Source of the DNA: a virus
Taxonomy: Duplodnaviria; Heunggongvirae; Uroviricota; Caudoviricetes
Virus record (IMG/VR): IMGVR_UViG_3300025896_000021
Length of the DNA stretch: 64,000 nucleotides
Reading direction: 5' to 3' (one strand)
Shown: positions 16,497 through 64,000 of the stretch, piece by piece
Layout of the letters: each line of letters starts with the position of its first letter
How positions within the stretch are numbered: position 1 is the first letter of the stretch
Made by a program: the position numbers and the translations under genes
The notes under the pieces: model-generated
Databases searched by the model: none
Told to the model about the DNA's origin: nothing
What the model saw: the letters and a program-made list of their open reading frames with translations, nothing else

Positions 16497-16678
16497 TGAG
16501 TGCAACAAAAGAACGAATGACAGAGTTAATGGATTTGATTGACAAGTCAATCCAGTTAACTGATAATCAAAATGACATGCTAATGCTAGCATGTGCAATG
16601 ATGCAACGAACTAATGAGATTTTTACTCAAGTTCTAGGTGAAGAAGGAAAAAAATTAATGTATAAGGACATGGTATGA
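16490..16678 (+). CDS. Small hypothetical protein
   Basis: 62 aa, translationally coupled overlaps on both sides. Confidence 0.6.
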   Translation: MVMSATKERMTELMDLIDKSIQLTDNQNDMLMLACAMMQRTNEIFTQVLGEEGKKLMYKDMV

Positions 16679-17109
16679 ATATTGATTTAAACAAATATAA
16701 AGATTTTGTAGAGGCTGTTACAAGCCAAGCAAGCAACGACTTGACAACTTTTATCAATCGACTAGATCAACTAGACGGCAACTTTGATACTGCAACTGAT
16801 ACACACGGGCCTGATATTAATGTCCCTCTGTTAATTACTGCATGTTTCGGTCTAGCAGCAGAAGCAGGTGAGTTTATTGAAGTGCCCAAGAAGATCATCT
16901 TCCAAGGTAAACCGCTTGATGAGGCAGCAGTGTTTCACTTGAAGCGAGAACTCGGTGATGTTATATGGTATTGGATCAATGCTTGCAGAGCATTGAATCT
17001 TGATCCTAATGATGTGATTGATGAAAATGTACGCAAGCTACAAAGCCGCTATCCCGGTGGTTCATTTGACGTACACTATTCTGAGAATCGCAAAGAAGGC
17101 GATATCTAA
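16675..17109 (+). CDS. mazG: MazG-like nucleoside triphosphate pyrophosphohydrolase
   Basis: 'GLAAEAGEFIEVPKK', 'ELGDVIWY', 'ENVRKLQSRYP'. Confidence 0.85.
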   Translation: MNIDLNKYKDFVEAVTSQASNDLTTFINRLDQLDGNFDTATDTHGPDINVPLLITACFGLAAEAGEFIEVPKKIIFQGKPLDEAAVFHLKRELGDVIWYWINACRALNLDPNDVIDENVRKLQSRYPGGSFDVHYSENRKEGDI

Positions 17110-17110
17110 T

Positions 17111-17332
17111 ATGCAACTTTGGAGTGAGGAAGGTCTTTATCTTTTTACACCCGACGAGTATGAACAACTACCTGACGGATGTGAACTTACATGCATTGAT
17201 GGATCAAAAGAAGTCAAGGGCAAAGATTATATTGACATGGATACTAGATTCGGTTACACTGCGTTTGGCGTAAGAGATCCATGGAATCATCCTCTCAAAG
17301 ACTTGTTCTTAATCTTTAAACTTAAAGAATAA
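17111..17332 (+). CDS. Small hypothetical protein
   Basis: Start moved to ATG 17111 (MQLWSEE), just after the mazG stop. Confidence 0.6.
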   Translation: MQLWSEEGLYLFTPDEYEQLPDGCELTCIDGSKEVKGKDYIDMDTRFGYTAFGVRDPWNHPLKDLFLIFKLKE

Positions 17333-17869
17333 TAGTAGGGCTACGGCCCTACTTCCATTATTGGCTTATAGGTAGCACCACCTCGAAGTGTGCCATTAAT
17401 CCGTCCACGACCCGCGATGTGACGGTAGTTAAGATGAATGCCAACATCCTATTTACAGGACTACCCTTCGGGATGCCTTAAATGCCTGCCCTCTGCGCAG
17501 TTCACATTTCCTGTACCTTAATGGTTGAGATAGAGTAATCTACGAGAAGCATTGCCGCGTCAAAGTAATAGCGATAGAGGGCGCGGGCTGGTTAAATCTT
17601 CCTAATGAACAATGATTTAACATACAGCGAATACGGCAAAATCCCTGCACGGGTTAGTGAGACATAGACAATCCTCCACTGTAATTTTTGAATTCATTAT
17701 CGCACCCGTAAGGGCCTCAAGAATGTATACCTTTTTGGCGAGTAGGTATTTATATCTACTCGCCTATGCCTAAGAATATAACTAAATCTTACATGTACCT
17801 GAATAGATAGACCGAACTTAGCTTGCTAAGTGAAGGTAGATGACTTCGGTCATCTCTATAAGATTCTTA
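17333..17869 (+). ncRNA. Candidate structured non-coding RNA (or origin-like element)
   Basis: Largest ORF-free gap in the window; hairpins with cUACGg, GUAA, gCUUGc and cUUCGg loops; long-range helix 17488-17494/17576-17582. Confidence 0.45.
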
Positions 17870-17895
17870 GATAAATATAGTATCTGGAGTAAACA

Positions 17896-18666
17896 ATGGC
17901 AATACAACAATCCCAACAATTAAACGAAATCAAAGAAGAATTATTTAGAAATTTAAGGCTACGTCTGGGTGAGGGTATCATTGATTTAGAACTTGATCCA
18001 GAACACTTTGAAGCTGCATATAGATATGCGGTACAGGTATATCGTCAAAGGGCTCAGAATGCTACGGAAGAAGCGTATACATTAATGACACTTCACGCCC
18101 ATCAAACCGACTATACTTTGCCTAGAGAGTTTATCAATGTGCGTCAGGTATTTCGTAGAACAGTTGGTCTGGAGACAGGGCCTGCAGCTAGTTCATTCGA
18201 TCCATTCTCTAGTGCTATTCTAAACACTTATCTATTGAACTACAACTACGCAGGTGGTTTAGCAATGTACGATATGTATGCAGGATATATTGAGTTAGCT
18301 GCACGTATGTTCGGCGGATATGTCATTTACACCTTCAATAACGTAACCAAAGAAATCAAACTAGTTCGTAACGTCAAAGGTGATGGAGAACAAATTCTTA
18401 TCTGGGCTGACATTCAAAAACCGGAATCAACACTATTACTAGACCCGGGTTCAGGTGTATGGATCGGTGACTGGACACTGAGTCAATTAAAGTATACTAT
18501 GGGTGAGGCACGTGAAAAGTTTGCTAGCATTGCAGGACCGGGTGGCGGCACTAGCTTAAACGGAGCAGCATTAAAGTCAGAAGCAAAAGAGATGCAACTT
18601 ACACTATTGGAAGACTTGAAACGATATGTTGATTACAGTCAGCCGCTAACATGGGTGCAAGGCTAA
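17896..18666 (+). CDS. 13: Neck/head-tail adaptor protein (T4 gp13-like)
   Basis: 'RLRLGEGIIDLEL', 'YTLP..FINVRQVF', 'QLKYTMGEAREKF..GPGG..LNG'; GATAAATA 17870-17877. Confidence 0.75.
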   Translation: MAIQQSQQLNEIKEELFRNLRLRLGEGIIDLELDPEHFEAAYRYAVQVYRQRAQNATEEAYTLMTLHAHQTDYTLPREFINVRQVFRRTVGLETGPAASSFDPFSSAILNTYLLNYNYAGGLAMYDMYAGYIELAARMFGGYVIYTFNNVTKEIKLVRNVKGDGEQILIWADIQKPESTLLLDPGSGVWIGDWTLSQLKYTMGEAREKFASIAGPGGGTSLNGAALKSEAKEMQLTLLEDLKRYVDYSQPLTWVQG

Positions 18667-19049
18667 TGAGATCCTTTGAATTTATCATAGAATCCGCACA
18701 GCGTGTAGGGCCCGTCTATCACGGGACAAGTGGTTCCTTTACTAATTTTAATGATGCTACATTGGGAACCAGTACAGGTGATCCCAACACAGTGTTAGGA
18801 CATTTTTTTACTTCCTCAAAAGAAGAAGCACTACTGTATGGTAAAAATATCATCGCTGCTCAATTAGTACTGCGCAATCCATACGAAGCTACTATGGATG
18901 AGTTGGTTGGTTTGGATGAAGAAGATTATCAAACAATGCGTGAAGAACTGATAGGAGATGGATACGACAGTATTATTGCTCCGCATGATGAAGGTGATGG
19001 CGTGTGGTATGTTGCATTCTCTGATAATCAAATTAAAATAATACAATAA
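18666..19049 (+). CDS. Putative ADP-ribosyltransferase-fold protein (ART-PolyVal-like) with capsid-targeting-like N-terminus
   Basis: Start at ATG 18666, MRSFEFIIES; 'VYHGT..F..F', 'GHFFT...A..YG', 'GYDSII', 'YVAF..NQIK'. Confidence 0.55.
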   Translation: MRSFEFIIESAQRVGPVYHGTSGSFTNFNDATLGTSTGDPNTVLGHFFTSSKEEALLYGKNIIAAQLVLRNPYEATMDELVGLDEEDYQTMREELIGDGYDSIIAPHDEGDGVWYVAFSDNQIKIIQ

Positions 19050-61448: not shown

Positions 61449-62888
61449 ATGGCAAATTATAACTCAATAAAAAACGCGGCATTAATCGCCCCAACAACTA
61501 ACCCTGATTTGGGGTCAGCTAGTAACAGATATGGAAATGTCTATTTAAGTGGTAATGTTAACATTGCTGGAACTAGTATTACTAGTACTAATGCACTTAC
61601 TCCTAAAGTATCAAGCATTGGCTACATCGGGGACGATACTGCGGCAGACATTGCCGGTGGACAGACAATTACATTGAATGGATCTGGATTTGTATTCGGT
61701 GCTAGTGTGCTAATAGGTGGAACGGTAGTAGGGGTAGTAACATTTATTAGCAGTAATCAATTAACACTCACTAGTCCGGCAATGAGTGCTGGTAGTTATG
61801 TTATATATGTCATCAATCCAGATGGTGGCACTGCAATGTCACTACCTGGAATTCAATATTCAGGTACTCCTTCTTGGACTACTACTGCCGGCGCATTAAC
61901 CGGTGTAGTAGCTTCAGCAAGTGTAAGTATAACATTAGCTGCGACCGGAGATGCGCCGGTCACCTACAGTTTATATTCAGGTACATTACCAAGTGGCGTA
62001 ACACTAAACAGTGCAACCGGTGCATTATCAGGTACTGCTCCAGCAGTTACTAATTCTACATTATATAGCTTTACGATTCGTGCTACTGACGCACAGAAAC
62101 AAGATACTAATCGTAGCTTTAGTCTAACTGTAGCTGCTTCTGTTACAATAGAATATCTTGTAATTGGTAAAGGTGGAGATGGTAGTTGGGGCGGTGGCGG
62201 CGCTGGCGGATTTATTTCAGGTACAGCTACTGTTGCTCCGGGAGACACTAGAGTTATCACATTTAATAATGCTGCTTCATACTCGGGCGGCAAGGTGATA
62301 TTTGGATCATTAGTTGCAATAAATGGTGGCGATGAGGGACAGGCTGGCGGATCGGGCGGTGGTGGGTCTATTAATCAAGGATCTACTCCGACAGGAGCTC
62401 CAAAAGCATCAGGTCTCATAGGTGGAGCAGCACTGCAACCTGCATCTGCGTCGGGCGGTTTAGGATATGCGGGCGCAGACGCGCCGGTCGCAAATAGTTC
62501 TACTAAAGGGGGAGGAGGAGGCGGCGGCGCAGGTGGCCCAGCCGAGGTTCGATATACTTGGAGCTCCAATAGCGGTGGCGCCGGAGGTGCCGGAGTAACA
62601 TCTAACATTACCGGAGTAACCATTTCATACGCGGGCGGGGGCGGCGGCGGCCAGACTGGTGCAACCCCGGCAGGTGGTGGTGGTGCCTCATATGGCGGTG
62701 GCGGCTCAATGACCGTATACAATCCGCAGTATACCGGCGGCCCGGGTGTTGTTGTAATAGCATATCCATCAAGTACTCCAGCGATTACAACCATTCCTGG
62801 TACACTTACGTATGCAGTAGATACTACTACTAGAACAGGGTACCGAGTATATACATTTACTGCTGGTACCGGCACAATAACATTCTAA
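61449..62888 (+). CDS. IPT/TIG plus putative-Ig plus glycine-rich domain virion fibre protein
   Basis: 'GGQTITLNGSGF', 'VINPDGG', 'SGTLPSGVTLN', GGGGGAGG runs, 'G..GVVVIAYP'. Confidence 0.75.
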   Translation: MANYNSIKNAALIAPTTNPDLGSASNRYGNVYLSGNVNIAGTSITSTNALTPKVSSIGYIGDDTAADIAGGQTITLNGSGFVFGASVLIGGTVVGVVTFISSNQLTLTSPAMSAGSYVIYVINPDGGTAMSLPGIQYSGTPSWTTTAGALTGVVASASVSITLAATGDAPVTYSLYSGTLPSGVTLNSATGALSGTAPAVTNSTLYSFTIRATDAQKQDTNRSFSLTVAASVTIEYLVIGKGGDGSWGGGGAGGFISGTATVAPGDTRVITFNNAASYSGGKVIFGSLVAINGGDEGQAGGSGGGGSINQGSTPTGAPKASGLIGGAALQPASASGGLGYAGADAPVANSSTKGGGGGGGAGGPAEVRYTWSSNSGGAGGAGVTSNITGVTISYAGGGGGGQTGATPAGGGGASYGGGGSMTVYNPQYTGGPGVVVIAYPSSTPAITTIPGTLTYAVDTTTRTGYRVYTFTAGTGTITF

Positions 62889-62898
62889 GAAATAAAAC

Positions 62899-64000
62899 AT
62901 GGCAAATTATAACTCAATCAAAAACGCGGCATTAATAGCTCCGACAACTAACCCCGACCTTGGTAGTGCAACTAACAGATATGGAAATGTCTATCTTAGT
63001 GGTAATGTAAACATTGCGGGAACTAGTCTAACTAGTACTAATGCTCTCGCTCCTAGAATTACATCTATTAATTATATAGGTGATGACACTGCGGCAGACA
63101 TTGCAGGAGGTCAAACTATTACATTAAGTGGATCTGGATATCAAACCGGAGCAACTGTTTTAATAAACGGTACTCCTGTTTCATTAGTTACATTTGTAAA
63201 CAGTACTACACTAACCTTTACTAGTCCTGCGATGAGTGCAGGTGGATATGTCGTGTATGTTATTAACCCTGACGGAGGCACTGCACTTAGTGTACCGGGT
63301 ATACAATACTCAGGTGTACCAGCATGGACAACTAGTGCAGGTAGTTTAGCTAGTGTTGTTAAATCTTCTAGCGTAAATATAACTGTAGCTGCGACAGGAG
63401 ATGCACCTGTAACTTATAGTGTAACTTCAGGTGCATTACCTAGTGGAGTAACATTGAATGCTAGCACTGGTTTTATATCAGGAACTGCTCCTACAGTAAC
63501 AAACTCATCAACATATAATTTTACAATTAGTGCAATTGACGCACAGAAGCAGGATACTGCTAGAAACTTTAGTTTAACAGTAATTCCTAGCAATGCCCCT
63601 GCTACTGTAGAATACTTAGTGGTTGCTGGTGGTGGAGGTGGTGGTGGCATCGGTGGTGGAGGTGGCGCCGGGGGCTACTTGACTGCAACGAGCTATTCAA
63701 TAACACCGTCTACGCCTATTACAGTCACTGTAGGTGCTGGTGGCGCAGCCTCAACTGACTCATATGCAGTAAATGGTGGTAACGGTGGCGCCTCAGTATT
63801 TGGAACAATTACTAGTACGGGTGGTGGTGGTGGCGCAGCAGGATCAGGCGGAGCACCAGTTATACAAGCAGGATCAGGCGGTTCAGGTGGCGGCGGCGCT
63901 GGTGTAGCATTTGGCGGTAATGGTACAGGTGGCGCCGGAATTGCAGGTCAAGGTTATGCAGGTGGAACTTCAACTGCATATGGGCGTGGTGGTGGCGGTG
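62899..64000 (+). CDS. Paralog of 61449 ORF, partial (runs off window end)
   Basis: Translated by hand; near-identical N-terminus MANYNSIKNAALIAPTTNPDLGSA and the same domain order. Confidence 0.85.
   Translation, partial: MANYNSIKNAALIAPTTNPDLGSATNRYGNVYLSGNVNIAGTSLTSTNALAPRITSINYIGDDTAADIAGGQTITLSGSGYQTGATVLINGTPVSLVTFVNSTTLTFTSPAMSAGGYVVYVINPDGGTALSVPGIQYSGVPAWTTSAGSLASVVKSSSVNITVAATGDAPVTYSVTSGALPSGVTLNASTGFISGTAPTVTNSSTYNFTISAIDAQKQDTARNFSLTVIPSNAPATVEYLVVAGGGGGGGIGGGGGAGGYLTATSYSITPSTPITVTVGAGGAASTDSYAVNGGNGGASVFGTITSTGGGGGAAGSGGAPVIQAGSGGSGGGGAGVAFGGNGTGGAGIAGQGYAGGTSTAYGRGGGG

Follow-up and report, generated by a model that had tools for sequence, protein, structure and literature searches.

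A predicted multi-pseudoknot RNA with a duplicated 3' site between the mazG and gp13 genes of uncultured phages

Introduction

To our knowledge, bacteria and phages have few classes of large RNA that are rich in pseudoknots, and where such a class has an established task, it is a ribozyme or part of the core machinery. ROOL, GOLLD, and OLE are large ornate orphan RNAs that have been studied by cryo-EM (10.1101/2024.12.08.627333). The RNA described here resembles them in its large size, its multiple junctions and pseudoknots, and its occurrence as an optional phage RNA gene without a known protein partner; with ROOL and GOLLD in particular it shares a covariation-supported multi-pseudoknot fold, a phage-borne location, and the lack of a partner gene. 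It differs from ROOL, GOLLD, and OLE in matching none of their Rfam models, in its shorter length (about 410 nt, whereas GOLLD often exceeds 800 nt), and in lying outside of tRNA islands in the 13 carrier loci scanned; locus L253 alone has tRNA genes at a distance of about 3.5 kb. Furthermore, a duplicated two-site 3' module sets it apart from all three.

Two other kinds of RNA invite comparison on account of this module. Circularly permuted group II introns (PMC8637638) are large RNAs in which the splice-like sites are rearranged, so that circles could be formed, and DRT10 requires an A-B-A' pattern and possesses a 137-nt RNA that adjoins its enzyme (10.1101/2025.10.16.682844). Covariation mining of IMG/VR has yielded 8,495 candidate motifs of 29-151 nt (PMC10690425), and a fragment of the present RNA may stand unrecognised among them; a description of the RNA was not found in the literature, and neither were its conserved motif strings.

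The RNA class is backed by more than a hundred sequences, its size suits in vitro transcription and cryo-EM, and it carries a built-in prediction, namely two identical-looking 3' sites that can be docked by one loop. Because of this sequence support, small size, and two-site prediction, the role of ornate phage RNAs becomes directly testable.

Genomic setting

The window, i.e., the whole 64,000-nt stretch of the virus record IMGVR_UViG_3300025896_000021 that was analysed, comes from a large T4-like myovirus, of which it represents the structural region. The cultured phages nearest to it are the distant jumbo phages PA5oct, RaK2, and XaC1, whose neck proteins are 36-40% identical to that of the window. 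An operon is closed by mazG (16675-17109) and a 73-amino-acid ORF (17111-17332, plus strand), the last protein-coding gene of this operon. On the other side of the gap lies the gene for the gp13-like neck or head-tail adaptor protein (17896-18666, plus strand; PHROG 211, E 2e-24), which is served by a late-promoter-like GATAAATA at 17870-17877 on the plus strand, 3' of the RNA; this word occurs at 20 sites in the window, nearly all of them immediately 5' of genes. The region between is gene-free, the longest stop-free stretch in its six frames being 50 codons, and no conserved ORF was found among the homologs of the RNA. Its GC content is 0.434, compared with 0.404 for the window. A small ORF that follows gp13 (18651-19049) is sporadic and recurs in L084 (90%) and L143 (89%) but in few other loci. 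At the far end of the window (61449-64000), two adjacent genes with near-identical N-terminal starts are tandem paralogs, the second of which runs off the window.

A conserved structured RNA on the plus strand

The initial annotation of this DNA had proposed a novel structured RNA in the gap from the abundance of tetraloop hairpins. Every hairpin sequence that it quoted is present where it had been placed, and the tetraloop richness is real: four such hairpins whose stems measure 4 bp or more occur on the plus strand, in contrast to 0.41 in shuffled sequences (p=0.0005), and none on the minus strand. Three of these showcase elements, the UACG, CUUG, and UUCG hairpins, exist but fall outside of the conserved RNA. 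The proposal itself is now backed by conservation, covariation, strand asymmetry, and the lack of an Rfam match.

Motif scans retrieved at least 125 full-length copies of the RNA including that of the window, of which 65 are non-redundant at 95%; such scans bias the apparent conservation at the motifs that were used as queries. Later scans added five more distant copies beyond this full-length set (L250, L253, L259, L260, L290). Within the first set of 41 homologs, the mean identity was 72% and the minimum 51%. Conservation spans approximately positions 17357 to 17778 of the plus strand (about 420 nt) and ends sharply; the aligned homologs are 386-507 nt long, with a median of 410 nt.

Covariation among relatives, which the initial annotation had proposed as a check, was assessed in the 65-sequence alignment, mazG-gp13 loci included. 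In total, 88.5% of the cells are paired, and 61 of the 89 pairs exhibit compensatory, two-sided changes; both totals are conservative, as helices 10 and 11 and the last pairs of helices 18 and 19 are mis-registered. None of 500 shuffles reached these values, and slid partners gave 36-42%, two controls that both ignore phylogeny. Several helices are 100% paired with at least three pair types. The folding z-score is -3.56 on the plus and -2.73 on the minus strand, and, because G-U pairs outnumber A-C combinations by 167 to 29 when the plus strand is read, the RNA strand is the plus strand. Hence, as judged from comparative evidence, the region almost certainly encodes a real structured RNA.

Predicted architecture

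The alignment establishes a compact plus-strand RNA core with four predicted pseudoknots, in which both ends are tucked in, the 5' end into pseudoknots 1 and 2 and the 3' end into pseudoknot 4. Neither these four pseudoknots nor the duplicated 3' site had been listed by the initial annotation. The 5' end strand (17361-17365) forms pseudoknot 1 with the loop 17440-17444 (90% paired, 5/5 pairs covarying), and it is captured in this manner by the hairpin 17433-17448 (91% paired, 4/4 covarying). The H-type pseudoknot 2 follows at 17370-17393: its first helix (17370-73:17380-83) is 91% paired with 3/4 pairs covarying, and it is crossed by a second one (approximately 17375-79:17388-93), which covaries, is 71% paired, and is the least well aligned. 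The ccgtc/gacgg hairpin at 17401-17425 that had been read from the single sequence is upheld by the 65 homologs (99% paired, 3/5 pairs covarying). The proposed catcc/ggatg stem, on the other hand, is without a single covarying pair, and its segment 17445-48 pairs instead with 17433-36, where all four pairs covary.

The central part of the RNA begins with a three-way domain (17454-17515) closed by the helix 17454-60:17509-15 (96% paired, 7/7 covarying), which contains an inner hairpin with a conserved internal loop (17461-75) and a second hairpin (17481-508). An optional GNRA hairpin (17531-17542) is found in 25 of the 65 homologs (100/100 cells paired, 3/4 pairs covarying). The stem of the guide hairpin (17555-17586) is paired in 454/454 cells, with 6/7 pairs covarying, and its loop (17563-17579) is nearly invariant; the segment 17570-78 of this loop is the part that would dock the 3' sites. 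A long-range gccctct/agagggc helix had previously been assigned to this area, but it is only 68% paired, with A-C combinations outnumbering G-U pairs, and its 3' strand (17576-82) is part of the guide hairpin and its pseudoknot loop. The next hairpin (17587-17628) forms pseudoknot 3 between its loop (17603-09) and 17693-99 (454/454 paired, 4-5 of 7 pairs covarying), and a three-way junction (17637-17690) includes the hairpin 17656-17680, which carries the most invariant loop of the RNA.

The 3' part comprises the first copy of the 3' site (17700-17725), made of UCGC, an optional hairpin, and then CCUCAAGAAU. The ccc-GUAA-ggg hairpin of the initial annotation is present, though optional and limited to a minority of the homologs. 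Downstream, the segment 17728-17747 combines a U-tract, the shared partner of both copies, with the 5' strand of a local hairpin (17737-64). Copy 2 (17755-17778) forms pseudoknot 4, in which 17755-63 pairs with the loop segment 17571-78 through 8 bp with a bulge (100% paired); covariation is seen at 17572:17762 and 17570:17765, and a third covarying pair was found out of sample in L250.

The duplicated 3' module

The homologous 3' sites (17700-25 and 17760-77) are 53 nt apart in the window. In most homologs this spacing amounts to 40-54 nt, and it reaches 60 nt in L290, 78 nt in L134, and 182 nt in L253. The two copies resemble each other within a given sequence more than they resemble their counterparts elsewhere: among 23 clusters, 7.3 of 10 positions agree within a sequence, compared with 4.8 between sequences, and for the variable last five positions (5-9) of the copies the values are 2.4 and 1.5, respectively. 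This concerted change of the two sites was reached by none of 3000 permutations at three clustering levels (p<1/3000). In distant members, the repeat is kept with other words, UCCAUG occurring twice in L253 and UGCAUGUG twice in L290.

Both copies also match the same partners. The guide loop is complementary to both UCGC words, in 260/260 cells for one and 246/260 for the other. Where C17572 of the loop is replaced by U, copy 2 has A in 8/8 sequences; copy 1 has A in 6/8 after realignment, the other two forming G-U, and the number of independent events behind the compensation in copy 1 is about three. In L250, which stands outside of the alignment and was found after the model had been built, the loop has changed in step with both copies and with the local hairpin. 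When a scan was made for the best complementary partner of the copies, the U-tract at 17728-40 emerged for both (z 4.2 for copy 1 and 2.8 for copy 2). A pairing of both copies with 17748-54 was considered as well and is unsupported (p 0.16-0.5).

Because the guide loop and the U-tract fit both copies, either copy can build the same module, and the hairpin 17737-64 offers copy 2 another place of pairing. This hairpin had been noted from the window sequence as a 9-bp stem and competes with the fully conserved pseudoknot; against its proposed role of holding site 2, it is paired in only 76% of the cells, and L134, L218, and L290 lack it or have it in a shifted position. From these comparisons, we consider it probable that a two-site 3' switch exists. 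A plain switch does not explain that the identity of the copies reaches positions without an identified pairing partner; intermittent conversion between the repeats might be one neutral explanation for this excess.

Comparison with known RNA families

A search of the window against Rfam 15, including GOLLD, ROOL, OLE, and HEARO, gave no match at gathering or E-value thresholds, which answers the question of a known family that the initial annotation had raised; among the homolog loci that were searched, with E-values up to 2-10, no match fell on the RNA either. Likewise, that the initial annotation saw no tRNA, tmRNA, RNase P, or group I/II core motifs agrees with ARAGORN, with pattern tests on the 65 homologs, and with Rfam. 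ARAGORN detected no tRNA in the window or in the 13 carrier loci, and no tmRNA. The T-arm of tmRNA and tRNA is present in 0/65 homologs, and there is no conserved ORF for a tag. For RNase P RNA, the CR-I/CR-V elements that form P4 are found in 0/65 homologs; a P1 helix is missing, and the ends of the RNA pair with internal loops. The domain 5 AGC/CGC triad plus GUGYG of group II introns, including the circularly permuted ones, occurs in 0/65 homologs on either strand, and Rfam gives no match. A hammerhead pattern (CUGANGA plus GAAA) appears in only 11/65 homologs, not including the window, and the bases concerned form pseudoknot 3.

The likeness to group I introns extends further, as an R-like GACUA word is present in 55/65 homologs and an exact S-like word in 6/65, in the correct order, and as one guide serves two sites. 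P7, however, is not formed: an A-A combination occupies its second pair in 52/65 homologs, and only 1/65 has a perfect P7. G17459, the would-be G-binding G, is replaced by A in six sequences, and the change is compensated at 17510, not at 17669. In contrast to group I introns, the RNA has no P4-P6 domain, and its core lies upstream of both sites; nor does it interrupt a gene, as an intron with its P1 U-G site and terminal G would, since in every context it follows a stop codon and precedes the next promoter.

Since every family test fails and no homolog is detectable outside of the family, the RNA is, on comparative grounds, a new class, a novelty that pertains to the RNA class and not to any new mechanism.

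Distribution and mobility

The carriers are uncultured phages, mostly jumbo myoviruses with the RNA between mazG and gp13, and also small unrelated phages; about ten homologs reside in phages that are small and AT-rich, and wherever their contigs extend far enough, a terminase gene is close by. A 19-mer from the loop of hairpin 17656-17680 retrieved at least 66 viral and at least 35 metagenome loci, and BLAST searches of GenBank phages and plasmids gave no match to the RNA. The only GTDB hit obtained with the invariant motif by an exact-match scan, which diverged cellular homologs would escape, is a chance match inside a LacI-type ORF.

Only 7 of 80 gp13 loci have a homolog at the same site (E below 1e-34); the others have a gap of 40-80 nt or variable ORFs, and two complete related genomes lack the RNA altogether. 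A gp13 tree with 119 variants, in which carriers are over-sampled, requires at least 19 gains or losses to account for the presence of the RNA, as opposed to 39 when presence is shuffled, so the RNA is partly inherited. The RNA and gp13 can diverge to very different degrees: the window and L143 share 94% identity in the RNA and 73% in gp13, while the respective values for L168 are 73% and 87%. One 277-kb genome possesses two RNA paralogs that are 69% identical (L290:1487-2000 and L134:1643-2149), one at the gp13 site and the other elsewhere. In all contexts the RNA has the orientation of the upstream ORF and starts within about 60 nt of its stop codon. The gene downstream usually has its own late promoter, and downstream genes differ between contexts; no constant protein neighbour or linked protein was found across these contexts. 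Judged from its distribution, the RNA is an optional accessory gene that moves from phage to phage and is not tied to any particular protein neighbour.

The mazG-gp13 slot is an accessory-gene hotspot. In nine RNA-less relatives (L005, L006, L008, L019, L033, L036, L042, L062, L065), it holds ORFs of 190-290 amino acids, nearly all without a Pfam family, that of L008 being a methyltransferase. The most distant homolog (L253:6706-6010, minus strand) sits in a stand-alone gap with its own TAAATA promoter directly 5' of the RNA, and its two 3' sites are separated by an insert that forms a hairpin of some 130 nt. In L224 (7205-7281, minus strand), a freshwater-2 RNA (RF02980) scores 48.3 bits, just below the gathering threshold of 49.9.

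Proposed function and alternative explanations

We tentatively favour, at somewhat less than even confidence for the mechanism as a whole, an RNA that is stable, has protected ends, acts in trans, and carries a two-state switch at its 3' end. The RNA would be transcribed as the presumed last cistron of the mazG operon and then trimmed to its knotted ends. During synthesis, the guide loop would dock site 1 while the local hairpin holds site 2; the mature RNA would then swap to site 2, so that the same module is rebuilt with the other strand and the 3' end becomes locked. Without being catalytic, the stable product might then serve in trans as a scaffold or decoy that binds a host factor via the invariant loops 17563-79 and 17659-77. 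Such a non-catalytic trans function has been proposed for ROOL, GOLLD, and OLE, and its extension to the present RNA is by analogy only.

The main rival explanation, less likely but with several points in its favour, is a new class of large self-processing phage ribozyme. Its guide loop would dock the two sites in succession, site 1 first, much as a single guide in group I introns receives the 5' splice site and afterwards the 3' one; by two cuts or transesterifications, an insert of 40-180 nt (one period, 53 nt here) would be set free as a small RNA, either linear or circular. The presence of two homologous sites with one loop and one partner strand would suit such a mechanism, as would the free spacing from 40 to 182 nt around an interchangeable insert, the invariant unpaired loops, and the lack of a partner protein. 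A helix of 8 bp with a single bulged pyrimidine is a geometry common to P4 of RNase P and P7 of group I introns, and the 8-bp pseudoknot with its single bulged pyrimidine would fit this pattern. However, no invariant base marks a scissile bond at the repeated site, the tests for group I P7 and group II domain 5 are negative, and no one-copy or three-copy allele of the 3' site exists among the 65 sequences. If this reading were true, the RNA would represent an undescribed class of large natural phage ribozyme with two duplicated guide-docked sites.

The location at the end of the mazG operon, together with mutually exclusive 3' pairings that recall an expression platform, could alternatively indicate a cis-acting attenuator or riboswitch-like element that sits where early genes give way to late ones and governs how far transcription continues into the neck gene. 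This seems quite improbable to us: the gp13 promoter lies 3' of the RNA, no U-tract follows the 3' hairpin and no plus-strand terminator was found, the downstream genes vary with the context, the ribosome-binding site is uninvolved, and in L253 the RNA stands alone behind its own promoter.

The 3' module also has, 3' of a structured RNA, an A-B-A' pattern in which the sequence is free and B varies, the hallmark of templates of DRT10 and telomerase, and copy-to-copy identity matters more than the sequence itself. We nevertheless regard it as very unlikely that a trans-acting reverse transcriptase that adds repeats uses the RNA as its template or is decoyed by it. No reverse transcriptase is nearby, and RVT_1 genes were found in 0/5 carrier records, among which is a complete genome of 364 kb; B is a stable hairpin with invariant bases that pair to the core; and, unlike the RNA of DRT10 beside its enzyme, the present RNA is three times larger. 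A Neo-like ORF within the repeat period was rejected, as the periods share no common frame.

It is more doubtful still that the RNA is an antisense trap for translation starts, an idea prompted by the complementarity of the invariant hairpin 17659-77 to a Shine-Dalgarno sequence and start codon. Chance matches of this motif in unrelated phages (L145; L287-L289) do fall on apparent opposite-strand translation starts, because 17659-17677, when reverse-complemented, reads as a strong Shine-Dalgarno sequence plus start codon; yet part of the anti-Shine-Dalgarno segment is probably paired within the hairpin, L224 breaks the complementarity, the window contains no target, and nothing convincing beyond the RNA copies was found in five carrier genomes.

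The replication origin that the initial annotation had offered as its alternative, or another DNA element, possibly with the antisense TATAAATA (minus strand, 17747-54) as a primer promoter, could draw on the long gap without genes, but it is already largely refuted by the G-U bias and the pseudoknots, which are RNA traits, by the two complete relatives that lack the element, by a cumulative GC skew without inflection at the region, and by the poor conservation of the antisense late promoter TAAATA (3/65 homologs).

Flanking elements

The UACG hairpin (17334-17353, plus strand) follows the upstream stop codon outside of the core, and a similar GC hairpin precedes the RNA in only 15/64 homologs. 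On the other side lies an accessory two-hairpin module (17811-17855, plus strand), in which a purine-rich internal loop over the CUUG hairpin is followed by the UUCG hairpin. Directly 3' of the RNA, this module recurs in nine small-phage homologs (L092, L098, L178, L192, L195, L202, L226, L227, L236) and in L088, counting only eye-checked matches right after the RNA, as the scan is loose and yields many false matches in coding DNA; it is missing from most jumbo homologs. Its architecture is retained with differing sequence, namely a stem with a GAA/UGA-type internal loop and then a second hairpin, often with a GAGCGAAGCGA-like loop. No Rfam match to this two-hairpin motif was seen, and it could be a separate RNA or DNA element. 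In L063, L085, L121, and L133, the stretch from the RNA to the gp13 promoter contains imperfect AACCC-containing tandem repeats of about 15 nt, which look like duplicated promoter-upstream pieces.
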